Below, one piece after another: positions 9,774 through 47,122 of a DNA stretch of 64,000 nucleotides. The notes under the pieces are model-generated. The model did no database searches. It was given only the letters and a program-made list of their open reading frames with translations, and was not told where the DNA came from. The stretch comes from a virus. Taxonomy: Duplodnaviria; Heunggongvirae; Uroviricota; Caudoviricetes. Each line of letters starts with the position of its first letter. Within the stretch, counting starts at the first letter, position 1. The position numbers and the translations under genes are program-made. Location: the IMG/VR virus record IMGVR_UViG_3300031998_000033, positions 36,685 through 100,684 of that record; one strand, written 5' to 3'.

Positions 9774-11274
9774 GTAAATAAATCTAGCATTACGTTAGAA
9801 AGGAAAATACGTTTATGAAATTTTTCACACATTGTTGCCATTGTGGAAATAAATTTGAAACTAAATCGAAAAAAGCCAAATACTGTAGCTGGCTATGTAA
9901 AAAAATTGAAATTACCAAAGCACAATTTCCGAATGGATCAGATTATGTTGAATGCAAAATATGCGGTCTGCGCGGCAAGCAGATCATATAGCATATAACA
10001 AAAGTCCATAAGATGGAAATTAATGAATACTGCAAAAAATTCAATGTTAAATATGAAGATTTATAGACAAAAAGTTTAAGTATTCAAATGTCGACTAATA
10101 CAAAAAAAGCCTGCGTAGAAGGTCGCTGCGGTTTTCAAAAAGGCGGAGACAATCCGTCGAAAAAAGAAGAATGCCGGAACGGCCGGAACAGCGTATGGTC
10201 GATAAACTTCAAGGGATATGACGGTCTTTCCGATGAAGAGAAAACAGCCAGAATAAAGGCGCTGAGCGAACGAGCGCAGGCGTCACGCGACAGCAGACAC
10301 AACAACGCGACCAAGATCGACTACTACTTGACACGAGGATATTCCGAACAAGACGCGAAAAAAATGCTGCGGGAAAGACAGCGGACGTTCACGCTTGAAA
10401 AATGCGTGGCTAAACACGGAGAGGAAGAAGGCAGCAGGATATACGAGGACAGGCAGCGACGGTGGCAGAACACAATGAAGTCGAAGCCAGTTGAGGAAAT
10501 AGAACGCATCAACAAGGCTAAATTATTTAGCAACCGTAGAGGTTTTTCTATAATCAGTTAGGAATTGTTCGAAAATATAGTTAAACAATTACATGGTCGG
10601 TATAAAAAAATACATTATGCAACTATTACGCCGGGGCGTATTGACGGCGAATACATGGTATATAACAAACATACTAAAACTACATATTTTTTGGACTTTT
10701 ATATAGAAGACAACAACAAGGTAATAGAGTTCGACGGCGATTACTGGCATGGCGAAAAGCGCGGAAACCAGAAACGCGATGCGGAACGCGAAGCGAATCT
10801 CCGTAAGCTGGGCTACGCCAATATCCTGCGCGTCAAGGAACGAGACTACAAAGCCGATCCGGACGCGGTCACGGCGCAGTGCGTCGAATTCATAACGAAA
10901 GGCGATTTATGAACCTCTCTGATACTGTATCCCGTAAATTCGTAGATTCGGCAGACGCGTCGGATTATGAGATCCTGACCGACTCCGGCTGGTAGGATTG
11001 CGTCGCCGTACACAAGACGGTCAAATACGAGATATGGCGCGTCTAGACTGAACGCCATTCGCTGGAGTGCGCCGACGACCATATAGTATTCCGCGAAGAC
11101 ATGAGCCAGGCATTCGTCAAAGACCTTGTACCGGGCGACGCGATAATGACCGAGGACGGCGTTGAAAAAGTAATCTCAATGGAACGGACGGGGTAGTTCG
11201 AGAACATGTTCGACGTCGAGCTGGCCGACGACACAGACCATAAGTACTACACTAACGGGATACTGTCGCATAAT
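9675..11274 (+). mobile_element. Split intein 1 in the terminase P-loop: IntN1 9675..9770, nested homing endonuclease gene, IntC1 10912..11274
   Basis: IntN block A CVCKNT..I. IntC is about 121 aa with block B LECADDHIVF and blocks F/G FDVELADDTDHKYYTNGILSHN, followed by +1 Thr. Splicing would give SRQTGK-TTSYTIF, matching T4 gp17 SRQLGKTT. Confidence 0.65.
9815..10912 (+). CDS. Free-standing homing endonuclease (N-terminal zinc ribbon plus C-terminal Vsr/DUF559-like nuclease), about 365 aa, 3 in-frame TAGs
   Basis: ATG at 9815 with an aggaaaa RBS. Cys clusters CCHCGNKF...CSWLCKK and CKICG. C-terminal motif EFDGDYWHGEKRGNQKRDAEREANLRKLGYANILRV. TAGs at codons 59, 84 and at 10559. TGA at 10910-10912 overlaps the next ATG (ATGA). 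Confidence 0.6.
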
Positions 11275-11634
11275 ACGACGTCCTACACAATATTCGCGCT
11301 CTGGACGCTGATATTCAATCCAGAACAGCGGATAATGCTTCTTGCGAACAAAGCCGATACGGCGATCGAAATTCTTTCGCGAATCCAGCTTGCGTATGAA
11401 TATATTCCTACATGGTTGAAACCGGCTGTCATTACGTGGAACAAGAGCGAAATAATTTTTTCAAACAAATCCGTCATAAAAGGCTTCGCCACGGCATCGG
11501 ACGCGGCAAGAGGCTATAGCGCGAACTGCGTCGCCGGCGACACCAAGATAACAGTGCGGTTTAAAATACTGCCGTTTATGAAATTTAAAATACCAATATC
11601 CTGGCTGAGGTTCCTCGGCAAAGATAGTAAATAA
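10909..11634 (+). CDS. terL: Large terminase fragment B: Met + IntC1 + middle extein + IntN2
   Basis: Middle extein TTSYTIFALWTLIFNPEQRIMLLANKADTAIEILSRIQLAYEYIPTWLKPAVITWNKSEIIFSNKSVIKGFATASDAARGYSAN aligns to T4 gp17 residues following Walker A. It is followed by IntN2 CVAGDTKITVRFKILPFMKFKIPISWLRFLGKDSK and TAA. Confidence 0.7.
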
Positions 11635-13389
11635 ATATATGACAAAAGAAATAACAATAGAACAGCTTAAAAAAGATCTAGCGGACCTGCTTGAAACGTC
11701 GCCGGACAACTACGCGAGATTTCTGAAATCCGAAAAGTACAAAGACAAGTATGAAGGATACATCGACAAGATAAACGAACTGACGCCGCTTCTGCAGGAT
11801 CCGTATTATAAGCTGAAGACGAAAATATACTGGATACTGCACGACATACGCGATTTTCCTAGATGCCATTGCGAAGGATGCCATAATGTGATCGCACGTA
11901 ATGTCGTAAGCGCCGTCGTAGGATACAGCGGCACCGGCCTTTTCTGTTCGAACAGCTGCGCGCAGAAAAGCCAGATGCATAAAGACAAAATGCAAAAGCT
12001 GGCAAGGGAAAAATACGGAAGCGACACCGTCGTCGGATCGCCGGCCGTTCGCATGAAAATAAAAGAGGTGTTCAAACAGAGAGTCGCAGAGAATCCGAAC
12101 TTCTACGTCGGGCGCGCGGAGAAAAGCCGAAAAACATGCAGGATGAGGTACGGCGTGGACAATCCGCAGCAGGACGAGGAGATCCGCAGCCGGACTATGA
12201 CAACGTTCAAAAAGACAATGCTTAGAAAATACGGATATAACAATGCCCTGGACGTACCGGAGATCAGACGGAAAATACGGCAGACCAACATCAAAAAATA
12301 CGGCGTCGAATCCGTATTCCAGAATTCGGAAATGATGCAGACTGTACAGGAGCGCGCTAAATCTCCGGAATCGAAAGCCAAGCGGAAACAGACATTAGAA
12401 GAAAAATACGGCGTCGGCAATTCATTTCAGACGCAGCAGTCTAAAGACGCGGCGATAACGTCCATAAAGACAAAATGCTACAACAGGCTTCTGACAACAA
12501 GCGTTATTCCTAATTTTTCCCTTGAAGACTACTTGAACATAAAGGACTCGGGCAAAAACATAAAAACCGTACTGTCGTGGCACTGCGCCGAATGCGGCAG
12601 AGATTTCGACGCCGTGCCTTTCGAGCATTGCTATGGCAGATCCATAGCAAGGTGCATGCACTGCCATCCCATAATAAACACCGGCTATTCCGTTATGGAA
12701 AAAACGGTGCTCGACTTCGTAAAGGAGCTTCTTCCCGGCGAACGAATAATGGAAAACGACAAGACTATGCTTGTAAATCCCGAAACAGGCAGGAATCTAG
12801 AGCTGGACATCTTCATACCGTCGCTCATGAAGGCCATAGAGTTCCAGGGAACATACTAGCACAGCTTCGAAAAACAGAAGAAGTATGACGCGATAAAAAT
12901 AGAAGAATGCCGGAACAACGGAATAGACCTTATGCAGCTAGACGAAAGCATGTGGACAGACGACAGGGACGCCGCGAAAGCCGCGATATCTGATTTCATA
13001 TTCAACTTAGAAGACCAAACGCTATGAAGCTTTCAGAATCGATAAAACGCCTGTATAAGAAGATAACAAGCATACGCGGCGCAGTGGAGGTGGAAACCGA
13101 CCGCGGATGGGAACCTGTCGAATACGTCATGCAGACGCCGGCGCAGCAGATATACGAGATAACGACCGAGAATGGCCTGGTTTTGAAATGTTCCGCCGAC
13201 CATATCCTGATAGACGCCGAAGGCAATGAAATGCTCGCGAAGGATTCGGCCGGCAGAAAAGTAAAAACCGCCGGGGGCAACGCCGAAATAGTACGGGTGA
13301 GAACGACGGACGAAAAGGCGGAACTATACGATCTTTCGCTCGGCGGAGACCGCCATGCGTACTATGCCGGCGGAATATTGTCGCACAAC
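11527..13389 (+). mobile_element. Split intein 2 at the terminase Walker-B site: IntN2 11527..11631, nested homing endonuclease gene, IntC2 13027..13389
   Basis: IntN block A CVAGDTKIT. IntC has block B LKCSADHILI and blocks F/G LYDLSLGGDRHAYYAGGILSHN, followed by +1 Cys. Splicing would give ARGYSAN-CVICDEFGFV, matching the gp17 Walker-B region. Confidence 0.65.
11639..13027 (+). CDS. Free-standing homing endonuclease 2 (zinc finger, KYG repeat modules, C-terminal Vsr/DUF559-like domain), about 462 aa, 1 in-frame TAG
   Basis: Frame-2 ORF between the two halves of intein 2. Motifs HCEGCHN...CSNSC, repeated KYGVDNPQQDEEIR / KYGYNNALDVPEIR / KYGVESVFQNSEMM modules, and ELDIFIPSLMKAIEFQGTY. TAG at 12857. 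TGA at 13025 overlaps the ATG at 13024. Confidence 0.55.
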
Positions 13390-14745
13390 TGCGTCATATG
13401 CGACGAATTCGGTTTTGTCGCCAATAATATAGCCAACAAGGTCTTCGAGTCCATCTACCCCGTAATCTCTTCGTCGAAGAAGTCGAAATTCATAATCGTG
13501 TCGACCCCCAACGGCGCCGATCCGAACAACCTCTACTACAACCTGTGGCAGCAGGCCAACCAGAAGAGCTACGATAAGAACAAAGAAGGCTGGAAACCGT
13601 TCAGAATCGACTGGTGGGACGTGCCCGGCCGCGACCAGAAGTGGAAAGAGATGACCATCGCGTCGATCGGCGAAAGGCGGTTCGCGCAGGAGTTCGGCAA
13701 TGAGTTCCTGGCCGGCAAACAGAGCCTCAAGCTCATCCCGGACGACATAATAGAGAAATTCAGGATGGAAGCGTCGCGGATGAAAGCATAGGGGCAGGCG
13801 CCGGTCGAGCAGCAGATCCTTTCTGAAAACGAGCAGATGGTGTACAAGTTCAGGATGTGGGCGGAGTTCGACCCGAAAAGAACGTATGCCGCGGCGGCAG
13901 ATATCGCGGAAGGCGTCGGAAAAGACAGCTCCGTATTATATATATTCGACGTCACCGACCTTAGCCGCATAATAATGTGCGCGGCGTTCTCGTCCGATAC
14001 CGTGTCTCTTGTAGAATTCGCGTACGTATGCTCGAAAATCCTTCCGCTTTACGGATCGCCGCCGCTGTTCGCGGAAAGGAACGGCGTTTCAGCCGGTATG
14101 CTGGATTCGTTACGTATAACCTATAAATACCCCAATATAGCGAGGGAATCCAAAAACGGAGAAGCCGGCATCTACTCGCATGTAACAATAAAAGGCCGGG
14201 CTTGCCTATGGGCGCGCGACATGATGACGACGATGGGATTCGGTTTCATTCTTCCCGACCAGGCCCTGCTCGACGAAATGGGCACTTTCGTTAAGAAAGA
14301 AACAAGCGGGCGACATACCGTATTCCAGGCCGCTTCGGGCTCGCATGACGACCACATCATGGCGCTGGTATGGCTATGCTGGGGACTAAATAAGGAAATT
14401 GTCGACAAATATTTCATCGTAGTGAAGACATTCGAATCCCAGCTCGGCGAACTTCTGCCGCAGATGCTCATGCCGATGACAGCATACAACGGCGCGCAGA
14501 TAAAACAGATATCCTAGGATCCCATATACCGCCGGTTCGTGGAAATAAAAAATGAATGTCTCTCGTCCTACAACGCGGCGATGAACGCCGAACAGAACGC
14601 GCAGGAAGACATATTCCAATGGAAAAAAAACCAGCCTCAGTATTTCGACGACGAATGGATAAGTCCGTCATGGAATGAAAACGAAAATCTACAACAGCGG
14701 TCAGTCAATCCAAATAACATCATGCCGTCATTTTTCATAAGCTGA
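13024..14745 (+). CDS. terL: Large terminase fragment C: Met + IntC2 + C-extein (Walker B, ATPase C-motif, nuclease domain). Two in-frame TAGs.
   Basis: C-extein CVICDEFGFVANNIANKVFESIYPVISSSKKSKFIIVSTPNGADPNNLYYNLWQQA matches T4 gp17 MIYIDECAFIPNF...QPVISSGRRSKIIITTTPNGLNHFYDIW. TAGs at 13789 and 14515 are in frame. TGA at 14743. Confidence 0.75.
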
Positions 14746-16023: not shown

Positions 16024-16611
16024 TCATGTTATCTCGTCGCAGATTCCGTATTTCAGACATTGCTCCGCGTCGAGGTACAGCTTGTCATCCTTCAGCATCT
16101 CGGCGAGCTTCTTCTTCGGGATTTTCGTATGCTCCGAATAAATGCGAAGGATCTTGTTAAAATGCTTTATGTTGTTCTCCGCTTCGCGCTTAAGCTGCTC
16201 GAAAGTCGAAAATTCTGCCCCGGCGCATCCCAGATGCAGCAGATGGTCGGAATACCTTGACATCGTCCTGTAATCACCGTACGCCGCCAATATTGATCCC
16301 GCCGAATATGCGACGCCGATTACGTGCGTATGTACCGATATGCCTTTGCTTTTCGCGACATCAAGCACGGAAAGCAGCCCAAACAATTCATAAGCATCTC
16401 CGCCGCACGAATTGATGTATATGTGTATGACCGGATCCTTGAACGCTTCCATCTGGTTAACCAGCGACGTGACGGCGTGTATCACCTCTGTCGAAATCGT
16501 AGAATCGAATTCACCGAGTATATACACATTGCCGTCGTCGGTTACGAAATTCCGCGACTTCACATTCTGGTTTCGCATAGGTGTATCTGTCTTTTTGTTT
16601 TCTGTCTTCAT
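16024..16611 (-). CDS. ClpP-family serine protease (a possible prohead protease)
   Basis: IHIYINSCGGDAYELFGLLSVL and VIGVAYSAGSILAAYG align to ClpP IYLYINSPGG and CMGQAASMGAFLLTAG (catalytic Ser). A His and an Asp follow with ClpP-like spacing. Confidence 0.65.
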   Translation of the reverse strand: MKTENKKTDTPMRNQNVKSRNFVTDDGNVYILGEFDSTISTEVIHAVTSLVNQMEAFKDPVIHIYINSCGGDAYELFGLLSVLDVAKSKGISVHTHVIGVAYSAGSILAAYGDYRTMSRYSDHLLHLGCAGAEFSTFEQLKREAENNIKHFNKILRIYSEHTKIPKKKLAEMLKDDKLYLDAEQCLKYGICDEIT

Positions 16612-16616
16612 GGCTT

Positions 16617-16892
16617 TTACTTTATAAATTTTATAAAACCAGACTTCTGTTTCGGAAGTCTCCTAAGCAACCATAAATATAATGTCTTGTCGTCAAGGCG
16701 TTCAAGCGTGACATAATTGTCCATCACTATCTGTCTTACGCGCGGATCGGGACTCATTGTCATATATTTGCGGCAGATGAATCCGGCGAAATCCTTGAAA
16801 TTTGGATCTTCTATATGACGACGCCAGGTTTCTTCGGACTTCGTCACAAGGATATTGTTCATTGCGTCAAATAGCATAGTCGATCTTGCCAT
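16617..16892 (-). CDS. Hypothetical small protein, 91 aa
   Basis: Track ORF in a compact minus-strand operon. Confidence 0.35.
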   Translation of the reverse strand: MARSTMLFDAMNNILVTKSEETWRRHIEDPNFKDFAGFICRKYMTMSPDPRVRQIVMDNYVTLERLDDKTLYLWLLRRLPKQKSGFIKFIK

Positions 16893-20036: not shown

Positions 20037-21046
20037 TCAGCTTCTACGCATACCTGTGCTAGACACCATTGCGGCGCATGCCGTGCCGCTTTCTTCGTCG
20101 TAATTGAACCCTTCGTTCAGATCGATCCACTCCGTCCAATTATTGGCGTCTTCGCTGTCCGAAATCTCTTCGGCAAAGTCATTTAGTTCTTCGCGTAAGC
20201 CCGATGGTATTATGCCGTTGTCCAACGCCTTTTCGCAGAACCACTGTAGTATGCCGTATATAAGCATATATGAAATATTATATCCGAGCGTCTTGTATCC
20301 GTGCCGGGCGGCGTCAGCGAGTATTTCGTTCAGCCTATCGACGTATACTTCCATACCGCCTACCCTACCGTTCTTGCTGACTGCTTCCTTGTGGCGGACA
20401 TTCTTAGATGAGCATTCTTTGTACACCTACAGGGCCTTCTCAGCAGTGGCAAGAGCTTGATCTGGGAACTTGTGGCTGTTTGCTTGGTCCCATGGAACGA
20501 CTTCCCCGCTGGGTCGCACCTCCAGCGCAACCTTATCAAGGTCGTCTCCGGCCGGCTTTAGCTTGATGAGGAACAGGAAGTCGGTTTTGCGGGTAGCGAA
20601 ATACCTCTTGAAATGGTCTTGGTTGTCAGTCGAAATACACCACCCAGTAGACTTGCCCTTATAAAACCTGCCGAGGACCTTGGCCGCATCGTAGCTCGGG
20701 ACTAGCCAGACTTCGTACCCGTCTACGTCCGGCGACAGCATCTCCGCTCCGGCGCGCTCGGCCTGCGCTTTGTACTCGGTGTCCTTCCGCTCCGATCGGT
20801 TTCTCGTGTCGAACTGCTGGACGAAATCCCTGAACTCGGAAAACGGCCTGGCCTGCCAGTACTCTATCGCGTTCTCTGGGCTCTTGCACTTGTGCCGCAC
20901 AGTGTTCCAGTACAGGCCGAACAGGTTTTCGAAGTCCGGCTCAGCCCCGTACTTTTTCTAAAACGCCTGCTTGTCCTCTGACAGAAGCACGCCTTCCCAA
21001 TAGGAGATAGCCTCCGCGATCTGCCTCTTAGTATACATCTTCTTTA
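20037..21046 (-). CDS. Leader-family protein 1 (MYTKRQIAEAISYW...) with a 'YEVW...GKS.GWCIST' domain, about 336 aa, 2 in-frame TAGs
   Basis: Track ORFs 20427..20900 and 20037..20426 are in one frame joined by TAG 20427. The N-terminal extension passes through a further TAG to ATG ~21044. The central domain is paralogous to 49810..51321. Confidence 0.5.
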
Positions 21047-21054
21047 TGATGTTA

Positions 21055-21834
21055 TCTTTCTTTTATTGACGTTATCTCAATGTCCTTGAAGTTATATTCT
21101 TCTGGATGTTCATTTAAAAACTTCTTTCTAGCTTCAGCTTCATCTTTAGCTTCAACCTCAGTCTGATATTTGTCTTGATGCCAAGCTGTATAACCTATAG
21201 TGAATGTCTTTACAGCATTGATTTCTTCTCCATACCAATCATCGCTGTCCTAGGAGTATATGTCTTTACCTGCAGCAGCTCGTTCTACCATTTTCACATA
21301 TGAGTCTATTTCATTCACCAGCCTGTCTGCCTTGTATGTGATATTCCAGTCTTCAGAGAATGAGCGGCGGTGGCGATTCGTGAAAGTCTTTTCTACGAAA
21401 TTGTCTACTTCAGCAAGATCTTTGCCGTCATCATGAACTGTGAATTTACCAGTGTCTATGTCAACATATAAACTTCCGCCATCCGCGCCTCCGCCTTCTA
21501 TCCCGAACAGTCTGTCTTTAATTCTATTAAAACCTAGATTATGGAACCAGCCATTAGTTTTGAACTTGTTATAATAATGGTAAAAATCTTTTTTATACTA
21601 ATATTTTCCGCCTATATCGGTATATTTGACCTTACCATGCTTGAATAAGTCTGTGACTAGCTAATGAGCTTTCCTTAGCTTTGGAAGCAGCTTGATGATC
21701 TAATTGCATGAGTCTCGCAAATCAATGTTCTAATAAGCTTTCTCACATATGCTCTTGTAGTTTCCAGCTCTAAGCTGCTTCTTCCAGTAAGCGATCGCCT
21801 CCGTAATTTGCTTCTTTGTGTATGTCTTTTTCAT
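21055..21834 (-). CDS. Leader-family protein 2 (MKKTYTKKQITEAIAYWKKQL...), about 259 aa, 5 in-frame TAGs
   Basis: ATG at 21832-21834. Translated by hand to TAA ~21055. No track ORF because of the TAG density. Confidence 0.5.
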
Positions 21835-21988
21835 CTTTTTGTTTTCCTTTATCGTAACGGAAGTCCGTACCATCTTGAACGGCCGCGGTTTTGTGTTAGC
21901 CATAGAAATATCCCCGTCCCAGTCTTCAGGATCGACGAACTTCCCGCCGTCTACGACCAGAAACGCGTCGTCGTGCCCGGCCGGCGAA

Positions 21989-24073
21989 TCAGCGGAACGA
22001 GAACGGACGCAGGAACATTTCCTTTCTGAGCTGCTGGTTCCTGTACGTCCCGTAGCCGTACGACTTTCCGGCCTTTATCAGGTTGGCGGCGGCCTTCCTG
22101 TCTCCCATGTCGTAGAACGTCTTGAGCATGTTGTTCAGATAGTTCACGAGGGCCGGCGCGCTGTAGTCGTCGTACCGCGCCGGCTCATACGGGAAAGACT
22201 GGTTTACCATGGCGCGCGCCAGCCGCAGGTCCACGACGTTGTCCCTGAACCTCTGGAACACTCCGGCGACGTCGCCGACGGTCTCGTCGAGGGTTTTGGC
22301 GAAAGCCATGAGCTTCTCGCTTCCAAACTGGTTGTGCATGGACAGCGTGGGCGAAGTCGGACTGGCTTCGAACTCCAGCTTGTTGAACCATCCGTCCTCG
22401 CCCAGCCCCCAGAACGCGAACCAGCGCCCGGCCTGGGCCGACGCCCTCGACTTCCCGGCGAGGCCCGTCGAGCAGTAGAACGGGACGAGGGCTTTTCCTA
22501 TAGACGCCACGACGATGACGCGCCCCGCATATACCATGAACTTGTCGTATCTCCCCGGCGCCATCCCCACTAGATCGGGCATGCCGCAGATGGCCTCCGC
22601 CTTCTGCCGGGCGGCTCCGCCGGCGGAGTTGGCCTTCATGCGCACTCTGGCCTTCTTCTGCCGCGCTGCCTTCCGCTCGGCCTCGCGCCTCGACTCCTCG
22701 CCGAGCTGCCGGTCCTCGCGGTCTTCGAGGATGAGGCGCTTGTCCTCCATGGCCTCGTCGAGCATGTGCGCCCAGTAGTATATCTGTCTGTCCGATTCGG
22801 ATATTGTTTTCGTTTCGCCCGTCTTCACCATCTTGAACGGTCTCGGCTTCGTGTTGTCCGGCGTAATCTCGCCGTCGTATTCGTCCGGGCGCACGAATTT
22901 CTTGCCGTCCTTCACCAGAAAGGCGTCGTCGTGCCTGCCGCTGTTCAGCCATTTCTCGAGCTTTTCCCAGTCCATCTCGCCGCCCCAGTAGACGTTCGTG
23001 TCGTCCGGCATCGGAACCTTCTTGAAGCCGTAGTCCTGCAGCCTCGAAATGCCGCTGATCCCGCCCGGCGTCGCCCCGCCGCGCGCCTGCAGCTCCATGC
23101 CCTTCTCGCACGACGCCGCCAGGGCCTTATACATGTCGTCCAGCACCTTCTCGTCCTTCGGCGCGGTCCCGAAGTTCTCGAAGTGCATCTGCCAGGCGCC
23201 GTCCTGGTCTATGACTACCATGAACGGCTTCTCCTGGTCGAAGCCGGGATTGACGTCCTTGTGCGCCAGGACGAACCCGTCATAGCCCCAGCACATGTCC
23301 TTCTGCTTCTCGCACGCGTCCAGGCGCAGGACGCGCCCGAGGTCCGACACGGGCGGCTTTCCGGCGTCCTCCTGCAGCCGTCTAGGCCCGCGGCCCCGCC
23401 CTCTGCACGCCTCGACCGCGGCCTTGACGCGCGCCGGGTCGTCGCTCTGCATGTCGTCCGCCTTGTGCTGCAGAAGCCAGTTCACCTCTCTCATGGAAAG
23501 CGTATACGCCACGCTGGACTGCACGTCCGGGTCGATTGACATCAGCGATCCGGGGCCGTCTATGATCCCCTTTATCCCGGGCTTGGCGCGGATCATGTCG
23601 TCAAGCACGACTTTGTACGGGTGGACGTGTTCGGCCCTGGCCCTTTCCATTATCTCGGCCGCCCATTCCGCGAAGTCCAGCAGCTCCCGGTCCGTCGCCT
23701 CCATTACGCCGTCCATTGGGGCGTATTCGTCGTCCAGCTTCTTCAGCGCGGCGCGTATGGACTTAGCGCTATGTCCGCCTCCGGCCATCTCCAGAAACCG
23801 GCCGAGGCAGTGCGTCACGGTCTCCAGGGCGTCTCCCTGCAGAAAGCTTTCCGCCGCCGCCGGGTAGCCGCACAGCTCTTCGACGGAGTCCTTCCACACG
23901 TCGAACACCGGAAGGTTCTTGTCCAGGAACGCGACGAATACCACCGGACGCCACATGTCGCAGCCGAACAGGTCCATGTATTCGAACTCGTTAGAGAAAA
24001 ACGCCGGGCGGGCGGGACTGGCGTTTATGTCCGGAAAGCGCGAACTCTGCTTGCGATACCATACTCTGTTCAT
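21989..24073 (-). CDS. Large hypothetical protein, 694 aa, GC-rich (about 62%) and free of TAG
   Basis: Single intact ORF with a TGA stop. GC and codon usage differ from neighbours. All other long ORFs at this locus are alternate-frame artefacts of the high GC. Confidence 0.6.
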   Translation of the reverse strand: MNRVWYRKQSSRFPDINASPARPAFFSNEFEYMDLFGCDMWRPVVFVAFLDKNLPVFDVWKDSVEELCGYPAAAESFLQGDALETVTHCLGRFLEMAGGGHSAKSIRAALKKLDDEYAPMDGVMEATDRELLDFAEWAAEIMERARAEHVHPYKVVLDDMIRAKPGIKGIIDGPGSLMSIDPDVQSSVAYTLSMREVNWLLQHKADDMQSDDPARVKAAVEACRGRGRGPRRLQEDAGKPPVSDLGRVLRLDACEKQKDMCWGYDGFVLAHKDVNPGFDQEKPFMVVIDQDGAWQMHFENFGTAPKDEKVLDDMYKALAASCEKGMELQARGGATPGGISGISRLQDYGFKKVPMPDDTNVYWGGEMDWEKLEKWLNSGRHDDAFLVKDGKKFVRPDEYDGEITPDNTKPRPFKMVKTGETKTISESDRQIYYWAHMLDEAMEDKRLILEDREDRQLGEESRREAERKAARQKKARVRMKANSAGGAARQKAEAICGMPDLVGMAPGRYDKFMVYAGRVIVVASIGKALVPFYCSTGLAGKSRASAQAGRWFAFWGLGEDGWFNKLEFEASPTSPTLSMHNQFGSEKLMAFAKTLDETVGDVAGVFQRFRDNVVDLRLARAMVNQSFPYEPARYDDYSAPALVNYLNNMLKTFYDMGDRKAAANLIKAGKSYGYGTYRNQQLRKEMFLRPFSFR

Positions 24074-24099
24074 ATTGTTACCAAATAGGATTTATCTTA

Positions 24100-24135
24100 T
24101 TAAATTTTACGAAATGGTTAATTTCCACGTCAACC
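24100..24135 (-). promoter_or_regulatory. Sigma70-like promoter for the 694-aa gene
   Basis: Minus strand TTGACG-18nt-TAAAAT, about 30 nt upstream of the ATG at 24073. Confidence 0.45.
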
Positions 24136-24159
24136 AATCATAAATTGTTTACTCTCATC

Positions 24160-24975
24160 TTACGATAAACAGAAAAAAGAACCGCGAGATTCTGCCTTGA
24201 TTATTTCTTCCTCTATCTTGTCAAGTTCCTGCCGACCTTCATCGCCGATGGAAGTATCGATAGAACCGCCGCCCGGAAGCGGAACATTCTGGAATTTCTT
24301 GCGGATCTGGCCTAAAAGTATCTTGGCTTTCGCAAGGCAGATACGCTTGACGTACTCGTTGCCGTAATAACGGGAAAGCGGAAGCTGCCGGTTGCACGTT
24401 AACAGAATACACTGGTTCGCGCACCTAGGTTCCGGCATCAGCCTCAATATCCCGGTATATTCGTCATACGTCCAGTCCGGATTGCTGCCCATCATGCGCT
24501 GCGCGGTGTCATACCATTCATGCAGGTTCTGGAACGTCACCCATGATCCGACGAAGTTGGTCTGACCGCCCATACCGAACATCGGGGATCCAACGCCCTG
24601 TCCGAACGCCGCGTACGGGGAGAAAAACAGGTCGCCATATCCGTGCAGCACATTGTCCTTCTGGAACGAAATCTGCTTGATCGACGCTATCTTAAGTTCG
24701 GACAGATCGATGCCGACGCCCGGCTTGTAATACCGGAGGTTGACTATGCAGTATTCTTCCGGATGGTATTCATATTTAGTGTAGAACTAAATTGAATCGC
24801 CTATTATGACGTTCAAGTGTTTCTGCAGCAGTTCGACCGTCTGAAGCCCGCCGCCTAAATTGAGGATAATCCAGTCCTTCAGCTGCTCCAATGTCGTTAC
24901 GCTAGGATTCAGCCATGTAGAATTCGGGCTTAAGTCTGAAAGCTCGTCTTTAGGTCTTTTAACTGCATTCTTCAT
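24160..24975 (-). CDS. Hypothetical protein of about 271 aa, 1 in-frame TAG
   Basis: Track ORFs 24787..24975 and 24160..24651 are in one frame, joined by TAG at 24787. Confidence 0.45.
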
Positions 24976-25447: not shown

Positions 25448-26284
25448 ATGAACAAGCATCAATACGACATTTTCGGGCTGGACCCGATTCCTTTCGGTCC
25501 ATGGGCGCCGGGTAGGCCCCATCCGCCGCGCCATGACGATCCGTATGTCAAAGAGACGACGAAGGTCGCGGAGATAAAAGACCGCTTCATGAAGACGCGG
25601 TACAAGGTCGCGCTGACGGACTTCGACGGAGAAGAACCGGCGCATGACGATCTGACGCATGAAGATTTATTCTTCCAAGTAACGGCTGTATCGTACAACT
25701 ACGACGAACCTCTTGAAATTATCCATCGCGATTTCAGGAATTTCGAAGACGCCGTCAGGTTTTTCGAAAAAACCGTAGACCAATTGCAGGCGCTGGCCAA
25801 ACTTGATTCGCGCGACGCGCAGGATATCAGAATATACGCCGACAAGACAGGATACCATAAAATCGATCCAGACTGCTGCCGCAACTGTAAATGGGCTGTT
25901 CCGGCCGACAAACATAACTGCCTGTTCCGCGAATGGCGCGGCAGACTTCGCGGAAAGTTCTTCTGCATGAACTCGAAATTATATTCTAAGCGCATGCCCG
26001 ACCTCGTTCCGGACGAAGGACAGCACGATGTATATCACGATTTCCAACATACCAGATGGAACGTAATCGACATAACTCCGGAAGTAGATCCAGACGGCAT
26101 CTGTGACGGATACGAGCGTAGGGAAAAAGAAACGCCGCCATGCCCGCCGCCAAGGCCACCTTGTCCTCCTATTCCGCCCGGGCCTCCTGTCCCGCCTGGA
26201 CCTCCTGTCCCGCCTGGACCTCCTGTTCCACCCGGGCCTCCGCATCCGTACGTGCCGGGACCGCTTCCGTATGGAAGGCCATAA
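25448..26284 (+). CDS. Hypothetical protein with a C-terminal collagen-like PPG/PGPPVP repeat, about 278 aa
   Basis: Likely start MNKHQYDIF at 25448. Cys motif CCRNCKW...HNC. C-terminal PPCPPPRPPCPPIPPGPPVPPGPPVPPGPPVPPGPPHPYVPGP. Lone plus-strand gene among minus-strand genes, with its own terminator. Confidence 0.5.
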   Translation: MNKHQYDIFGLDPIPFGPWAPGRPHPPRHDDPYVKETTKVAEIKDRFMKTRYKVALTDFDGEEPAHDDLTHEDLFFQVTAVSYNYDEPLEIIHRDFRNFEDAVRFFEKTVDQLQALAKLDSRDAQDIRIYADKTGYHKIDPDCCRNCKWAVPADKHNCLFREWRGRLRGKFFCMNSKLYSKRMPDLVPDEGQHDVYHDFQHTRWNVIDITPEVDPDGICDGYERREKETPPCPPPRPPCPPIPPGPPVPPGPPVPPGPPVPPGPPHPYVPGPLPYGRP

Positions 26285-31592: not shown

Positions 31593-32396
31593 TTACTTGT
31601 CGGCCTGAATCAGCAGGCTTGAAGGCTTGCCGTCGAACACAAGCGTAGTCGGCATGACGCCGTTCCATTTCTCGATGGCGTTCAGCATCATGACGTCCTT
31701 GTTCTTGTTGAGGGCCTCGGCCCTGATCTGGATCGCCTCGGCCTCGGCTTTCGCCGTCACGAGCTTCTGCTTGGCCTCCTCCTCGATCTCGGCGGTCTTG
31801 TTCTTGGCCTCTAGCGCTCTCTGCTGCGCCACCTGCTTCGACTCGATCGCCTTCTCGAACACGTCGCTGTAGTCGATGTTCATGATGTTGATCTGCTTGA
31901 CCGAAACCGGCTTGTCCGCGACAAGCCCTATGACCTTCTCCGAAATGGCGGCCGTCGCCTTCTCGCGGTTGTTCACCAGCTGCTCGGCCTCCCACTGCCC
32001 GACGACGTCCTTCACCGCCGACTGGACCGCCGGCTCTATGATGACCGACGCGTAGCGGTCGCCGTACTTCACATGCAGGTCCACGAGCTCGGCCTTCTTG
32101 ACGGCGTACGTCACCGCGATCTCGAAATCGGCCTGCTGCATGTCTTTCGTGTACGCCTGCATTTTGTAGTTGACGCGGACGTCGCGGAGCGTATAGCACT
32201 TCATCGACCCGCCGACGGGATTCACGAAGTACAGCCCGGGGTCGAGCACGGGTGTGTCGACCTTGCCGAACCAAGTCTTAAACCCGGCCTCATCGGCGTC
32301 GATCTGCCCACATCCAGACATTAAAACGACCATAACCGCGCTTAAAACAGCAAATACAATATTCTTCATACGACTTTCCTTTCTATAGTTGTTCAT
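31593..32396 (-). CDS. SPFH/band-7 (prohibitin/stomatin-like) lipoprotein
   Basis: Signal peptide plus lipobox LMSGC. SPFH core with a coiled-coil E/A/K-rich C-terminus. 267 aa, no TAG. Confidence 0.6.
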   Translation of the reverse strand: MNNYRKESRMKNIVFAVLSAVMVVLMSGCGQIDADEAGFKTWFGKVDTPVLDPGLYFVNPVGGSMKCYTLRDVRVNYKMQAYTKDMQQADFEIAVTYAVKKAELVDLHVKYGDRYASVIIEPAVQSAVKDVVGQWEAEQLVNNREKATAAISEKVIGLVADKPVSVKQINIMNIDYSDVFEKAIESKQVAQQRALEAKNKTAEIEEEAKQKLVTAKAEAEAIQIRAEALNKNKDVMMLNAIEKWNGVMPTTLVFDGKPSSLLIQADK

Positions 32397-35370: not shown

Positions 35371-36714
35371 TTACATACCCGGGTTTCCGTCCGCGCCGCA
35401 ATAGCACCCCGGAGTGCAGCCGCACATCATTCCCAGGCCGGGCATCATCTTCAGCCTGCGCCTGAGCTCGGCATCGTGCGCAGCCGAGCCGGTGGTCCGC
35501 TCGATCATCTTCTGCACGATGCCGTCGATGGTCGTCGGGTTCTCTTTCTTCCATTCTTCCATGCGCTTCCGCATCTCCCTCTTGAAAGACTGGCGGGCGT
35601 CTTCGGTCCTGATCCTGGCCTCTTCGTGGTCGTCCGCGCCGAGTACCCGCACGGCCTTCGCGACGCCGATTCCGGCGTTAAAGTGCGGAAAATCGTCTCC
35701 GATCCCATGCCCGAGGCCGATGATGGAGTTGACTACGCGGTCAAAAAGCCTGTCATCATCATATTCGTACGTCACCTGGTCGAGGACGACGAACTTGTCC
35801 ACTGACGCCGAGAAGATCTCCTCGAAGTGGTCAAGGCAATGCTTGACGATTTCCGGGTTGGTGTAGACATGTTCATAGCTGAAGTGCCTGGTGTTTTTGG
35901 ACTCTTCGTCGCCCTTTTTCGGCTTATACATGCACGGAGTCTCGCCGAGGACGCACCCTGGGACGCCGAGTTTCTCTTCGAGCTCCCGGAGCTTGGCCGC
36001 GTCCTCCTCGCTCGGCCCCTTGCCGTAGCGCTTCCAGGCCTCGGCCTCGGTATGCGGGTTTATGAGCACGACCTTCGCTTTGGCCTTCTTCACGATCTTT
36101 CTCAGCTCGCCCACCGCGTGGGAATCGAAATGCCCGCGCTCCTTGTCGTAGGAGATGGGGTAGTCGCCGAGCGCGTTTTTGGGATCGACGAATATGACGT
36201 TGACATTCGGGAGCTCGCCGGGCTTCACTTCGGTCCCGACTTTCGCCTTCTCGGTTTCCCCCTCGGCCTTCGCCTTCTTCTCCCTGACGGCATATCCCAG
36301 CTTGGCGGCCAGGTCTTCGGGGGACTTCGGATCGAGCTCCTCGTACAGCCTGGCCACGGAGTAGTTGGCCTTGCGCTGTCTTTCCCCCACGGCCGGATCG
36401 AGGTGCATCTTCGCCCTTCCGGGGCCTTCATAGCAGAAGTCCTCCACCGTCGACTTGGCCGCGAGCGCGCGGTCGGTCGTCTTACGGGCGAAAGACGCCT
36501 CCGCCAGCGTGTAGTAGGCCCACGGCGCCTTGGGGCAGTCGTTCCACCTGATACCGACGTACCACGTGCCGTCGCGGCGTGCGCCGCGTCTTATCGTGAC
36601 GTAACGGTCGTACGAGCGCAGCTTTTCGTACAGGGCGTTCGCGATTGTCGTCCAGCCGGCGGCGCGGAGCTTGGGCTTCCCGGCGGTTTCTGTCTTGGTT
36701 TTATCATGCTTCAT
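35371..36714 (-). CDS. Hypothetical two-domain protein, 447 aa
   Basis: N-terminal domain paralogous to 34438..35016. C-terminal domain with a GxG-rich Cys tail. No TAG. Confidence 0.5.
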   Translation of the reverse strand: MKHDKTKTETAGKPKLRAAGWTTIANALYEKLRSYDRYVTIRRGARRDGTWYVGIRWNDCPKAPWAYYTLAEASFARKTTDRALAAKSTVEDFCYEGPGRAKMHLDPAVGERQRKANYSVARLYEELDPKSPEDLAAKLGYAVREKKAKAEGETEKAKVGTEVKPGELPNVNVIFVDPKNALGDYPISYDKERGHFDSHAVGELRKIVKKAKAKVVLINPHTEAEAWKRYGKGPSEEDAAKLRELEEKLGVPGCVLGETPCMYKPKKGDEESKNTRHFSYEHVYTNPEIVKHCLDHFEEIFSASVDKFVVLDQVTYEYDDDRLFDRVVNSIIGLGHGIGDDFPHFNAGIGVAKAVRVLGADDHEEARIRTEDARQSFKREMRKRMEEWKKENPTTIDGIVQKMIERTTGSAAHDAELRRRLKMMPGLGMMCGCTPGCYCGADGNPGM

Positions 36715-36855: not shown

Positions 36856-37728
36856 TTACTTTAATCTTCCACGTATAAAAGTAGAATTTGGACAGTTTTT
36901 AGCATATACTTCTATATTTCCATCTGTCCACCAATGACTACCTTTTATCGTGTTAGCTTGTTTTCTATGCCACTCAGCAAATCTTTTAGGATCATTTTTC
37001 TTAATATTCAAAATGCCTTCTTTTGATTTGCTTGCATTCAATTTTAATTTCAAACACACTTCATTAGAAAATGGTAATCGTCCTTTAATGAATCCGGTCG
37101 GACAATCAAATTGAAAAACTTCTACTGTACCATTATTCCACCAATGCTTTCCAATGCTGGCTTTACCAATATTTTTCTTATGCTCCTCGGATAACTTCAT
37201 CCCCATATGCGATTTACGTATTTTATCTCGCCATTGTTTTCCCTTTATGGGATCATTAGCAATTTTTCTAATTGTTTCTTTAGCTTTAGAATTTGCTTTC
37301 TATCTCGCACGTTTCTATACAATAGCTTCTTTAGACATAAAGTCTTCTGCGTTTTTGCCATACATTGGATTATTACATCCAGACATATCAGCTGAATGCG
37401 TTTTAGAAAATTCCTGTTTTATTTTTTCGTATGTTCTAGCAGTTATTTGTATGTCTTTGCAAATTGCGAATTTCCAAACTGCTGCAACAGCCGCGTTATA
37501 ACGTCTATCATTGTTTCCATATTCGCTTTGATACCATTTTGCCAAAAGCCTATGCGCAATGAAATGTTCACGCGCAGTCAATGCAACAATGTTATTTGGA
37601 TCATGTTCAAGCTCTGGATAAAGTGATCTCATCTTAATATGATGATATTCACAATAACAAATTGAACGATCAATCTTGTTAGTTAGTCTTTTCTAAATAA
37701 GACTATTATATATCTTCTTGTAGTTCAT
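36856..37728 (-). CDS. HNH homing endonuclease with NUMOD3-like DNA-binding repeats, about 290 aa, 3 in-frame TAGs
   Basis: HNH core CYCEYHHIK...PELEHDPNNIVALTAREHFIAH. C-terminal HWWNNGTVEVF...CPTGFIKGRL and HWWTDGNIEVY...CPNSTFIRGRL. Track ORFs 37315..37632 and 36856..37206 are one frame joined by two TAGs. The extension to ATG ~37726 crosses a third. Confidence 0.6.
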
Positions 37729-41640: not shown

Positions 41641-42111
41641 TCAATTATAGTCATCCGCCGAACCGTCGTCGTACTGATAGTTGTCGAAGTAGAACTCCAC
41701 TCCGAATTCGCCTTCCCCGTTTTTCACGCTCGCAACCACAGTGTCGTAATTAAGTTCGGCGTCGCACGAGTCTTCTAAAGCCCAAAGCACCTTTTCTTCG
41801 AAATCCTCGACAGACAGGGTAGTCTTGGCTGTTACGGAAATCCCATGCGACGTATCGGAAACATTGACGTCCGAAATTCCATCGACGCTTTCGATTTCGT
41901 TTTTGATCGCTTCTAGCCCAACTAACTCTATTTCGTATCCGGCGTCGTCTTCGTATCCGGCGTCGTCTTCGTATCCGGCGTCGTCTTCGTATCCGGCGTC
42001 GTCCAAATCATTCATATCTTCGTTTACCTTGCGGTAATTGCCCTTGGCGAGCTGTTTCTTCCAGTAGGCGATGGCTTCCTAGATCTGCTTCCTGGTGTAG
42101 GTCTTCTTCAT
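41641..42111 (-). CDS. Leader-family protein 6 (MKKTYTRKQI(TAG)EAIAYWKKQLAKGNYRKVNE...) with (DDAGYE)x4 repeat, about 156 aa
   Basis: The TAG sits at the leader position that is Q, V, T or A in the other members. TGA at 41641. Confidence 0.5.
41935..42010 (-). repeat. 18-nt perfect tandem repeat x4 (gtatccggcgtcgtcttc) encoding DDAGYE
   Basis: Read directly from the sequence. Confidence 0.8.
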
Positions 42112-45277: not shown

Positions 45278-45706
45278 TTAGCCTAAACCGAAACTGGCTT
45301 CAGCCGCGGGCTCAGGCCCGGCGTCTAATTCAGACTCCTCGTCGCCGGCTTCGTCGCCGCCTCCGAGATCGCCTTCATTGCCGCCTTCATCGCCGCCTTC
45401 GCCTTCACCCTCGCCGCCTTCTCCGCCTTCGGCTCCACCGGCTTGTTTCGGTGACGCAGCGGCCGATGCGGCTTTCTCCTCAGCCTCAACATCCTTTTTG
45501 AGACGGATCGGCGACTTAAAGTCAACAGGCGGATTCTCCTCAGAGACCAGGTCGGCGAAATAATCAGCTATGGCCACCAGCTGCTTTTCGCGGATAAGCT
45601 CGCGGAAGTTATCTTCAATGTCCTTATCCGACATGCCGAGATACTTACGCATGACCGTTATCTTAGAGATCTCATCCTAGTCGGCGAACGCCTTGTATAT
45701 CGTCAT
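45278..45706 (-). CDS. Acidic Gly/Glu-rich small protein (possible prohead core / internal head protein), about 142 aa, 1 in-frame TAG
   Basis: ATG ~45704. Low-complexity GGAEGGEGGEGEGEGGDEGG tail. Immediately downstream of the portal gene. Confidence 0.4.
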
Positions 45707-45769
45707 CTTGGCGTCGACAAGCTTCTGAATCTCGTACAGGTCATACAGCACGGGCTTGACGAACTCGAT

Positions 45770-47122
45770 CTATATGTCGGAGTCAATGAGGTCATATCCG
45801 TCCTTGTCCCAGATGTCGCGCAGCTTGAGATGCGTTATGAAGCTCTTCTTGAAGCCGTCGGCGAACCTCCGCTGGAAACGCATGATCATACGGGAGAACG
45901 CGTACTCCTCATACGAAATAGCGTCGTTCTTCTCCATGGTATTCTCCGGAGTCTTGTAGCGCGTCCACGGTACCTTGAACTGCTTGATCAGCTGCCTGAG
46001 GAAATACTCGATGTCGTCCATCTGGTCGTATGTGGCGGAAGACCCTACCGACTCCACCGATGTGCCGTCGTTGCCGTCCGACTTGCCGAACACATAGCTC
46101 TTCAGCATCGTCGGCGGACTGTACGTGCCGTAGATGTCCCGGCCGTTAGGCGCCGCGACCTTCTTCGACTTGAGCTCCATCGCGAACCTGCGTACATACT
46201 CGTCTGCGTAGTTCTAGGTCATCTTGCCGGTCGAGACGTTGAACAGCAGCCTCTCCGGGGCATGCGTCACGCGGAGGATCACCGCCGAGTCTTCGAGCAG
46301 CGCGAGCCTGTGGTACTGCTGCTTCGCGTTCTCGATAAGCGGGTATGAAATCATATAGTCATTCGAATATTCTCCCGAATTGATATATGTCACCTGATTC
46401 CACAAAAGCGGAACGCACGTGTCTTTCGCAAGGTGGAAGTTATACGTAGTCGGCGCGATCGTATTGAATACGGCCGCGCAGCCGGCTATAGAATTGAGGT
46501 ACATCTGACGGCACTCTTCGGCGAACTGCTCTACGTCGAATACAATGCCGATCGGCAGGCCTGTCTCGGCGTTTATCAGGGTATCGTAATATTCGGCGGG
46601 CAGGAATTTCACTCCGATGATGCCGAGGTCCGGATACTGGGGGTTGATAATGTTCTCCCACGCGAGCTCGCCCTCCGTCAGGAACCGCTTGATGAGGTTG
46701 AACCCGTCGTCGCGCATGTTGAACAAATTCATGAATTTTTTGAATTCGTTCTGAAGGATCTCCTGCTGCACTGAATTAAGCCGCTATGGAAGCGCCAGAG
46801 TTATGAAATTCTTGTTCTCGTCGTCATGGATGAAGTCATCCGCGATTTCATCCATGCACCAGCGGCATATCGGATACTGCGCGATCTGCCGGTACATCTG
46901 TATGCGCTGCGCCTTGTCGGACGCGACAGGCATGGCCAGCACGTCCCCGAAGTCGATCGCGCATGTCGGATTTGCATACCTGGCGATACGCTCCTGCGCT
47001 GCCCTCGAGACCATCGACCTCGAGTTTATTATAGTAGCTATGTCGTTATTGATACGGCTGAACGCTCCGTAATTCGAATTGTTCATCACGCCAGCGGCGG
47101 CCTGCGTAGTATTGATTCCCAT
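45770..47122 (-). CDS. Portal protein (T4 gp20-like), about 450 aa, 2 in-frame TAGs
   Basis: Track ORFs 46784..47122, 46214..46771 and 45770..46180 are one frame joined by TAG 46784 and TAG 46214. HRLALLEDSAVILRVTHAPERLLFNVSTGKMT resembles gp20 [30 protein letters not shown]. Confidence 0.7.

Follow-up and report, generated by a model that had tools for sequence, protein, structure and literature searches.

A GC-rich allele of a modular gene behind gp13, probably acquired by a jumbo phage from a GC-richer relative

Why does one gene of 694 codons, lying just behind a T4-like neck gene, differ so sharply in composition from both of its flanks, and why is a piece of it found again immediately downstream? 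The stretch of DNA analysed here (the window, 64 kb) is part of a 277.6-kb metagenomic jumbo-phage contig with T4-like morphogenesis and late-transcription genes: in the window these are Phage_T4_gp13, Portal_T4, a gp55-like late sigma factor, a tail tube gene and a head maturation protease. The genes at the locus are the following.

24160..24975, minus strand: T4 gp13-like neck / head-tail adaptor gene (Pfam Phage_T4_gp13; phrog_211 head-tail adaptor), with 1 TAG
21989..24073, minus strand: GC-rich, TAG-free ORF of 694 codons, stop TGA at 21989-21991, a three-module fusion
21052..21834, minus strand: leader-family gene 2, 260 aa, 5 TAG, GC 0.38, likely start at ATG 21834 with AAGGAA before it
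20037..21038, minus strand: leader-family gene 3, 333 aa, 2 TAG, its N-domain occurring again in 49810-51321

The window holds 88 in-frame TAGs among its 66 genes, including the portal, gp13 and tail genes. In alignments with homologues from L004, L010 and one window paralogue TAG stands opposite Q, and the phage reads TAG as glutamine, in the manner of code 15. ARAGORN detected no tRNA in the 64-kb window, suppressor tRNA(CUA) included, and an Rfam scan of the window returned no families.

The 694-codon ORF has a GC of 0.627 and a GC3 of 0.860, ranking first of 66 for both (z ~2.4) against window-gene means of 0.496 (sd 0.054) and 0.603 (sd 0.108), respectively. A 1-kb profile steps sharply, from 0.41-0.53 alongside to 0.62-0.64 within the gene, which bears out the GC contrast (about 62% versus about 50%) given in the first-pass annotation. 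The same annotation had described the gene as TAG-free between neighbours with two to five TAGs each. The absence of TAG stands (0 in 694 codons, ~3.0-3.2 expected, P(0) ~0.04); the neighbour counts are 1 for gp13, 5 for 21052-21834 and 2 for 20037-21038, so that range was slightly too high. TAG-freeness is only marginally unusual, because 37 of the 66 genes likewise lack TAG. As a family trait it was ruled out, since TAG is present in the orthologues of L002, L003, L004 and L010.

Comparison of the locus in relatives located the same gene family directly 3' of gp13 in L002 (62% GC), L003 (~58%) and L004 (40%, with the same N-terminal module), each at its own GC, and the term moron, applied to the gene on first reading, is therefore not appropriate. 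The same gene at native GC and at the same locus in relatives is what the first-pass annotation itself had listed as speaking against its proposal. Between the window and L002, the 694-aa gene shows an amino acid identity of 0.85, a nucleotide identity of 0.89, a dS of 0.185 and GC3 values of 0.88/0.89, whereas the adjacent gp13 shows an amino acid identity of 0.91, GC3 values of 0.61/0.88 and a dS of 1.73, an estimate inflated by these compositional differences. Only inside the 694-aa gene does the GC3 of the window equal the genome-wide value of the L002 lineage. These comparisons show that the GC-rich allele was swapped in from a GC-richer relative resembling L002, and the dS contrast agrees with the earlier suggestion of a comparatively recent arrival. 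The actual donor would be another GC-rich relative, similar to L002 but bearing the N-terminal module as well.

Both junctions were located. On the left, the window equals L004 from the 3' end of gp13 through GAGAGTAAA and diverges thereafter, at a mark that lies in the spacer:

24146..24152, minus strand: GTAAACA, a one-base-degenerate GTAAATA, the left junction mark; in L004 the motif GTAAATA is intact and lies 20 nt upstream of the ATG

On the right, homology to L002 ends 14-20 nt past the stop codon, and at that point the tail of another module A begins (module A being the central domain of the 694-aa protein, described below), as expected from the proposed insertion within a pre-existing gene.

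The tail at the right junction is the repeated piece. The internal segment 22807-22935 has, as the first-pass annotation had noticed, a diverged copy at 21849-21977, with 71% nucleotide identity over 129 nt and 27 of 38 amino acids identical, and this is the sole second copy of any segment of the 694-aa protein within the window.

21862..21975, minus strand: remnant of the tail of the displaced resident module A (HDDAFLVVDGGKFVDPEDWDGDISMANTKPRPFKMVRT), within DNA homology at 21849-21977, GC3 0.66

The remnant shares its reading frame with the MKKTYTKKQI... of gene 21052-21834. It is 71% identical in nucleotides to the window copy, 74% to that of L002 and 70% to that of L003, and its GC3 is backbone-like, against 0.87-0.92 in those three copies. 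Because it is equidistant from all copies and has this GC3, we read it as part of the displaced resident allele and not as a copy of the incoming gene; what had been called a duplication scar is thus not one. In-situ tandem duplication was ruled out, since the remnant lies no nearer to the segment within the 694-codon gene than to its counterparts in other phages, and the GC3 values differ. Frameshifting or readthrough joining the 694-aa ORF to the remnant was likewise rejected, as the frames differ and nothing supports it.

The transcription signals bear on whether the gene might still be a moron from outside the phage lineage, expressed early from its own sigma70 promoter and inserted with duplication of part of itself.

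24104..24133, minus strand: sigma70-like TTGACG-18-TAAAAT, 10/12 matches, in the 86-nt spacer; its surroundings are missing from relatives
24988-24982, minus strand: GTAAATA motif of gp13, predicted to be phage promoter-like
19990..20018, minus strand: strong intrinsic-terminator-like hairpin, 13 bp stem and T-run, two genes downstream

The sigma70-like site lies where it had been annotated as a strong promoter, and L002, L003 and L004 have spacers of only 12-28 nt without such a site. Its strength is statistically unsupported, because a score like this is expected by chance in the window: 13 sites reach 10/12, and there are 77 sigma70-like sites in total versus ~71 expected from shuffles. The conserved motif [AG]GTAAATA is found within 70 nt upstream of 15 of the 66 genes, gp13, a tail-fibre-like gene and four of the six leader genes among them, and also before the orthologues in L004 (directly) and L010; by this motif the locus of the 694-aa gene is predicted to be a late-type unit. 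There is no terminator between gp13 and the 694-aa gene, the first one being at 20018, and this hairpin probably ends the transcription unit of gp13, the 694-aa gene and the leader genes. A moron would account for the highest GC and GC3 of 66 genes, for the 10/12 site in a spacer that relatives lack, for the degenerate GTAAACA just upstream and for the lack of TAG, which suits translation before recoding was established. Like lambdoid phage morons, the gene has a GC off that of its flanks and a promoter-like site upstream, and sits between conserved genes. Unlike them, it occurs at the same locus in relatives, has no private terminator and appears as an allelic replacement instead of an addition. 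With three relatives carrying the family there at their own GC, TAG in the L002 and L004 orthologues, a promoter score at chance, and a downstream copy that does not come from the incoming gene, we consider a moron unlikely.

Vertical inheritance without any transfer, with gene-specific selection or mutation bias raising the GC, would find some room in the heterogeneous composition of the window, where 31593-32396 and 35371-36714 also have a GC3 of 0.82-0.84. It is nevertheless improbable, given a dS versus L002 that is ~9-fold lower than in the abutting gp13, a GC3 at the L002 lineage value only within the gene, and sharp junctions that match the homology breaks.

An equally improbable alternative concerns the remnant, which had been suggested to form a functional N-terminal extension of the downstream gene. 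Translation would then start at ATG 21903 or further upstream, giving a gene 21052-21903 with the ...NTKPRPFKMV tail at its N-terminus. The frame is open from 22203 to 21052, GGGGA precedes ATG 21903, and fusion of module A, leader and cargo is usual at this locus (L003 and the 694-aa gene). However, only 38 of the ~180 domain residues are left, so GNAT-like folding is impossible; in-frame continuity is expected by descent; and the leader is N-terminal in five paralogues and in most of 76 relatives, which start at the leader Met, as gene 21052-21834 would from ATG 21834 with the usual AAGGAA spacing.

An assembly chimera, with reads from some GC-rich organism fused to phage sequence, could produce a sharp GC step at both ends but is extremely improbable: the JGI contig L007, assembled independently, agrees with positions 20882-22368 of the window at 100% identity over the 1487 nt that span the right junction, three further assemblies show the same synteny with gp13, and the ORF is intact. 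The metagenome scan returned nothing but this identical sequence, used here as a control of the assembly.

We turn to the protein itself. The 694-aa protein consists of three modules joined, each of which occurs alone or in other combinations elsewhere (a slash marks a module boundary or predicted cut).

23366..24073, minus strand: N-terminal module, aa 1-236, ending ...RRLQE/D, GC3 0.82
22820..23365, minus strand: module A, GNAT-like (acyltransferase-fold) domain, aa 237-418, ending ...NTKPRPFKMVK
22751..22819, minus strand: linker and internal leader-like motif, aa 419-441 (...SDRQIYYWAHMLDE/A), a motif also found in free-standing genes
21992..22750, minus strand: C region, aa 442-694, with a ~90-aa core at aa 510-605 (GRxIVV..PFYxSTGxxGK..GxW..FxGxGxDGWFNK) common to giant phage proteins

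Over aa 1-184 of the N-terminal module, protein P0006 of L004 is 61% identical, contiguous with its own module A and directly 3' of gp13. P0017 and P0021 match aa 142-245 of the 694-aa protein and then run into other domains. P0025 combines the C domain seen here with an N-domain like that of gene 20037-21038. The internal leader-like motif is the N-terminus of free-standing genes, namely P0013 of L010 (MKNSIDRQIYYWAHMLDEAF) and the last gene of L003 (MNQQRQIQYWAHMLDEAF). The whole protein had no matches in Pfam (LPD models included), PHROGs, NCBIfam or PADLOC, and solved structures gave no match by sequence. Among 50,697 isolate phage records none matched, either by megablast of the locus or by tblastn of modules A and C, and an IMG/VR scan with the module A profile gave no relatives.

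By the fold criterion applied, module A has the GNAT fold, and we conclude that it is a divergent GNAT-like domain. As in the GNAT superfamily, an invariant glycine-rich loop, which in GNATs is the CoA pyrophosphate site, lies between strand and helix, with a GF motif after the helix. The loop, T-P-G-G-x-S-G at the strand-to-helix position, differs from the canonical Q/R-x-x-G-x-G/A after beta4. Unlike GNATs, module A matches no GNAT sequence model (no Pfam family at E<=1, no PDB sequence match with the module A profile), and its ~60 C-terminal residues (WLNxGxHxDxFLV...NTxPRPFKMV) have no GNAT counterpart.

The C core, for which the PDB holds no structural neighbour, recurs in proteins of 2-5.8 kaa, two of them with LPD38 and one of these also with GNAT; a further protein that bears it is annotated as a phage structural protein. 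In the giant phage proteins the core keeps company with M23 and lytic transglycosylase domains as well as with LPD38 and GNAT. LPD38 and lysozyme domains are described as confined to phage-type polyvalent proteins, a class injected along with the DNA (PMC5512222). Like these proteins (Iyer et al. 2017, PMC5512222), the 694-aa protein would unite disparate domains, GNATs among them, in one polypeptide, and its delivery with the DNA is likewise predicted. Unlike them, it is short, has three modules, lacks a Pfam LPD match and has no MPTase-type processing peptidase.

The genes downstream belong to a leader family of variable cargo. Six members lie in the window, and 76 anchored relatives from the databases share MKKxYTKKQIxEAIxYWKKQL. 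The leaders fall into three length classes and end in [LIVM]-x-E in 73 of the 76, conservation collapsing right after the Glu. Searches of the leader-gene cargos against Pfam and PHROGs gave no useful match, and the family is unannotated because standard-code gene callers truncate leader genes at TAG. The 694-aa protein has the leader motif only as an internal variant; its N-terminus is without a clear leader, and only MKKVWYRKQ of L004 recalls MKKTYTKKQ.

We infer that the leader resembles a T4-style capsid-targeting propeptide ending in hydrophobic-x-Glu. The capsid-targeting sequence (CTS) of T4 is MKTYQEFIAE/A, which the N-terminus MKKTYTKKQITE/A recalls. As in the internal proteins of T4 (IPI, IPII, IPIII and Alt, processed by gp21), the leader is the only shared part of unrelated, fast-evolving proteins and ends hydrophobic-x-Glu, and its genes bear late-type motifs and belong to a phage whose head, neck and late-sigma genes are T4-like. 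In T4, this sequence is the sole conserved part of diverse internal proteins (PMC3012670, PMC9026906), and gp21 cuts after L/I-x-E (PMC9026906, PMC3012670). Unlike the T4 internal proteins, the leader has 24-31 aa here versus 10 in T4, and in the 694-aa protein the motif is internal. The head protease differs as well:

16024-16674: ClpP-like head maturation protease, the sole head protease detected in the window

No gp21-type (S77) prohead protease homologue was found in the 64 kb, and packaging and cleavage are predictions.

Mosaic loci of a related kind have a precedent: the T-even phages reportedly have hyperplastic mosaic cassette loci, among them the IP loci, with exchange through conserved flanks. 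As in these, variable cargo lies here between short conserved sequences (promoter motif and leader), and modules are swapped among relatives. Unlike in these, the right junction is illegitimate or based on microhomology (GCCGG-type), falls within a coding domain and left a truncated remnant.

Together, the evidence makes it reasonably probable that the 694-aa gene is a GC-rich allele of a modular gene following gp13, recombined from a GC-richer relative, that the scar is the tail of the displaced allele, and that the product is virion cargo. The incoming allele recombined in from the L002-like relative with its left junction within a conserved promoter-like sequence just past gp13 and its right junction 14-20 nt past the incoming stop, inside the resident module A, whose displaced 3' tail stays in frame with its own leader and cargo as before the event. 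The gene would be transcribed late with gp13, and its product would probably serve as a multi-domain effector that is packaged in the capsid and delivered along with the DNA. Cleavage may occur after LQE/D (aa 233-236) and MLDE/A (aa 437-441), where hydrophobic-x-Glu falls at module boundaries, a placement that could be chance because [LI]xE occurs eight times in the protein. The neighbouring leader family would be cargo of the same kind, tagged by a T4-CTS-like propeptide.

A broader reading is possible and is put forward tentatively. TAG-recoded, T4-related jumbo phages may carry a large set of exchangeable, capsid-packaged effectors addressed by a 24-31-aa propeptide, MKKxYTKKQIxEAIxYWKKQL...[LIVM]xE; the 694-aa protein may be a three-part polyprotein cut at such sites to release a new, divergent GNAT-fold enzyme and a giant-ejected-protein domain; and the incoming allele may have exchanged the late motif for a promoter of the host type, which would shift the timing of its expression.

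As such, the GC anomaly is a case of ordinary phage mosaicism, here datable and mapped to the base. The locus offers a clean natural module exchange among recoded jumbo phages of 38-62% GC, at one locus, with the footprint of the displaced allele left behind. Two uncharacterised domains, the divergent GNAT-like fold and the ~90-aa core, tie it to phage-type polyvalent proteins. The leader family is widespread, and if the propeptide reading is right, the leader would be a sequence handle for listing the injected effectors of uncultivated jumbo phages.

The 694-aa gene (ORF 21989-24073(-), 694 codons) has a GC content of 0.627 and a GC3 of 0.860, against means of 0.496 (sd 0.054) and 0.603 (sd 0.108) over the 66 curated genes of the window, and ranks first of the 66 on both measures (z ~2.4). 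The 1-kb GC profile runs at 0.62-0.64 within it vs 0.41-0.53 alongside. TAG is a sense codon in the window, with 88 in-frame TAGs over the 66 genes, and stands opposite Gln in DPNI[TAG]SSV vs DPDVQSSV of contig L004, in DR[TAG]IYYW vs DRQIYYW of contig L010, and between window paralogues (RKQI[TAG]EAI vs KKQIQEAI). Examples of TAG-containing genes are:

21052-21834 (-), leader-family gene, five in-frame TAGs
45278-47122 (-), TAG-containing gene
61456-63984 (-), TAG-containing gene

The 694-aa gene has zero TAGs vs ~3 expected (P ~0.04). The first-pass annotation had called it GC-rich and TAG-free, and both descriptions hold, though 37 of the 66 genes likewise lack TAG, clustering around 26-39 kb. 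Neither tRNAs, suppressor tRNAs included, nor Rfam families were detected within the 64-kb window. A second GC-rich gene, 35371-36714(-) (GC 0.61, GC3 0.82, TAG-free), adjoins a very AT-rich (GC 0.33) HNH homing endonuclease gene, 36856-37728(-) (phrog_655), and the Band_7 gene at 31593-32396 is a third one with high GC3. The phage genome is a compositional mosaic.

An identical 694-aa protein was found on a 277,570-bp ENA metagenome contig, and a search of 50,697 deposited phage genomes returned nothing similar. Genes of the setting are:

24160-24975, T4 gp13-like neck gene
47862-48446, gp55-like late sigma factor gene
surrounding genes, T4-type portal and DNA polymerase B
surrounding genes, tail tube and ClpP-like head maturation protease
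surrounding genes, 5'-3' exonuclease and clamp-loader-like

The stretch 9815-14745(+) looks like a large-terminase gene broken into pieces: 10909-11634 is made up of the C-half of an intein (...YYTNGILSHN|T), a terminase-like part with a weak Terminase_6N match and an intein N-start (SAN|CVAGDTKITV), 13024-14745 opens with a further intein C-half (...YYAGGILSHN|C) and goes on with VICDEFGF..., and the pieces are interspersed with free-standing genes of endonuclease-like type (9815-10912, DUF559/MTES_1575-like; 11639-13027, DUF7487).

Among 5.8 billion proteins, a word-indexed search retrieved only the 694-aa protein itself and two relatives; an exhaustive HMMER search yielded 277 and resolved three modules. 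The N-terminal module (aa 1-236) is 61% identical across aa 1-184 to database protein P0006, whose contig L004 (GC 40%) carries the gp13 3' end, a 28-nt spacer and the N-terminal module contiguous with module A, with one in-frame TAG; aa 142-245 are common to P0017 and P0021, whose downstream sequence is unrelated. Module A (aa 237-418), naturally ending in ...NTxPRPFKMV[KR], occurs alone or C-terminally in other proteins. In contigs L002 (GC 62% throughout) and L003 the gene begins with module A immediately 3' of gp13, and in L003 the C-terminal region that follows is another one, bearing LRR_5 repeats. In L010 (GC 38%) the leader-like motif (...DRQIYYWAHMLDE|A) and the C region make up a gene of their own, with the N-terminus MKNSIDRQIYYWAHMLDEAF and a start 13 nt downstream of a GTAAATA motif; the last gene of L003 has the N-terminus MNQQRQIQYWAHMLDEAF. 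In P0025 the C domain of the 694-aa protein is fused to the N-domain that window gene 20037-21038 carries. The modules are thus found in varied combinations, indicating free shuffling within this phage group. The first-pass annotation had taken the gene for a moron and had named its presence at the same locus in related phages, at native GC, as the refuting result. This is what was found: the same family occupies the same locus in relatives and is native to the post-gp13 position, and the gene is not a moron.

The N-domain shared with P0025 (...YWxxRPxxEFRDFVxxFDxRNR...GRxYKGKSxxWCIST...; phrog_28193) is present in two window genes, 20037-21038(-) and 49810-51321(+). L003 also has an AT-rich (27-40% GC) endonuclease-like gene upstream of gp13, and its module-A gene extends, across TAG codons, into LRR_5 repeats of the BspA type (L003:400-1800, L003:4290-4757); giant LRR_5 proteins lie beside the free-standing C-domain gene of L010.

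Comparison with L002 set the gene apart from its neighbour. The gp13 C-terminus is 0.91 identical in amino acids and 0.77 in nucleotides (dS 1.73, GC3 0.61 in the window and 0.88 in L002), whereas module A, leader and C region (449 codons) are 0.85 and 0.89 identical (dS 0.185, GC3 0.88 / 0.89). Thus the 694-aa gene has the composition of L002 and ~nine-fold lower silent divergence than the abutting gp13. Its dN/dS is 0.52 (0.06 in gp13), as expected of fast-evolving cargo. At the left junction the window and L004 share identical sequence from the 3' end of gp13 up to and including GAGAGTAAA and diverge beyond, the window having ~55 extra nt enclosing a sigma70-like site, where spacers are 12-28 nt in L002, L003 and L004. 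At the right junction L002 homology extends 14-20 nt beyond the stop codon (TGATTCGCCGGCCG), and the tail of another module A starts at once (GGCACGACGACGCG..., HDDAFLV...). Window 20882-22368 is matched at 100% identity by the independent JGI contig L007, which rules out an assembly artefact as the source of the right-hand GC step.

The tail piece is the only second copy in the window of any part of the 694-aa protein (21849-21977 vs 22807-22935, 71% over 129 nt, 27/38 aa identical), and lies in frame with the leader of gene 21052-21834, confirming the repeat of the first-pass annotation. Its interpretation as a duplication scar of the incoming gene is ruled out: the remnant has a backbone-like GC3 of 0.66, against 0.87-0.92 for the window, L002 and L003 copies, and is 71%, 74% and 70% identical to them, respectively, while those three are mutually 79-93% identical. 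Given this composition and equal distance, the remnant is therefore what is left of the resident allele after the incoming segment cut into it; its frame runs on into MKKTYTKKQI... since the resident gene, like that of L003 and like the incoming gene, had the fused architecture A-linker-leader-cargo. The proposed recent recombination inside a pre-existing gene is thus borne out by the dS contrast and the junction in the resident module A. The donor would have been a GC-rich relative, supplying the N-terminal module as well.

Six window genes start with MKKTYTKKQIxEAIxYWKKQL... and continue into unrelated sequence of GC 0.38-0.56; their starts are:

21038, leader-gene start
21834, leader-gene start
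25381, leader-gene start
39885 (+), leader-gene start
41413, leader-gene start
42111, leader-gene start

The leader recurs in at least 78 database proteins, some on contigs of 220-432 kb and nearly all truncated, presumably by standard-code gene callers stopping at TAG. Anchored on YW, it has three lengths (...KKQLKE|S, ...KKQLKKMNE|S and ...KKQLAKGNYRKVNE|S), and [LIVM]-x-E lies within 20 residues past YW in 73 of 76 sequences, with conservation dropping directly behind its Glu. T4 gp21 cleaves after L/I-x-E, and among the diverse internal proteins of T4 nothing but the capsid-targeting sequence is conserved (PMC3012670, PMC9026906). The 694-aa protein has an internal YWAHMLDE|A that aligns with YWKKQLKE|S, and its N-terminal module/module A boundary reads QL[QK]E|[DN] in all homologues; these are putative cleavage motifs in a protein with 8 [LI]xE occurrences. 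No gp21-type protease was seen within the 64-kb window. Low-complexity tails occur at 25448-26284(+), 56004-57155(+) and 41641-42111(-), the types being a repeat rich in proline (PPGPPVPPGPP), a long acidic tract dominated by D, S and T (DDTGSDD...) and a fourfold DDAGYE repeat right behind a leader.

The strong sigma70-like promoter proposed for the gene exists as a site, TTGACG-18-TAAAAT at 24133-24104(-), well placed and not statistically distinctive: the window holds 77 such sites vs ~71 expected, and 13 reach 10/12 matches, leaving the promoter claim unsupported. GTAAATA occurs 21 times vs ~8 expected, and 15 of the 66 genes have [AG]GTAAATA in the 70 nt upstream of them (7-45 nt from many starts), among them gp13, the late sigma gene, a tail-fibre-like gene and four of the six leader genes. 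It also precedes the L004 orthologue and leader or C genes of L008 and L010:

3412, 9774, 11627, 24988, 25415, 25436, 39725, 41452, 42137/42155, 48482, 48561, 52198, 55967, 59451, [AG]GTAAATA in the window
L004:~105, L008:~9950, L010:~6985, [AG]GTAAATA in other contigs

The T4 late promoter sequence is TATAAATA. By this likeness and the gp55-like sigma, [AG]GTAAATA probably serves the phage as a late-type promoter of its own. Ahead of the 694-aa gene the motif is degenerate (GTAAACA, 24152-24146). Between gp13 and the 694-aa gene there is no terminator, and the first strong one (20018-19990) lies behind both leader genes; terminator placement and the late-type motif therefore indicate that gp13, the 694-aa gene, gene 21834 and gene 21038 most likely form one late transcription unit, with an added host-type promoter possible at the 694-aa gene.

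More than 100 proteins contain the C core (aa 510-605), some of them giants of 2-5.8 kaa. P0062 and P0094 combine it with LPD38, P0094 additionally with Pfam GNAT, and further relatives bear Peptidase_M23 or FHA; its BFVD matches are to portions of an LT_GEWL protein, of a giant podovirus protein and of a Cellulophaga phage 'structural protein'. Both LPD38 and lysozyme domains are confined to phage-type polyvalent proteins, for which packaging and injection with DNA have been proposed and in which GNATs are recurrent enzymatic domains (PMC5512222). The best-supported reading is that the 694-aa protein would be a late-made, virion-delivered multi-domain effector. The cargo family may work like T4 internal proteins or polyvalent proteins, a likeness drawn from sequence that does not place it in either class. 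The replacement at the post-gp13 locus is an instance of known phage mosaicism, in an uncharacterised cargo family that is probably packaged in the virion.
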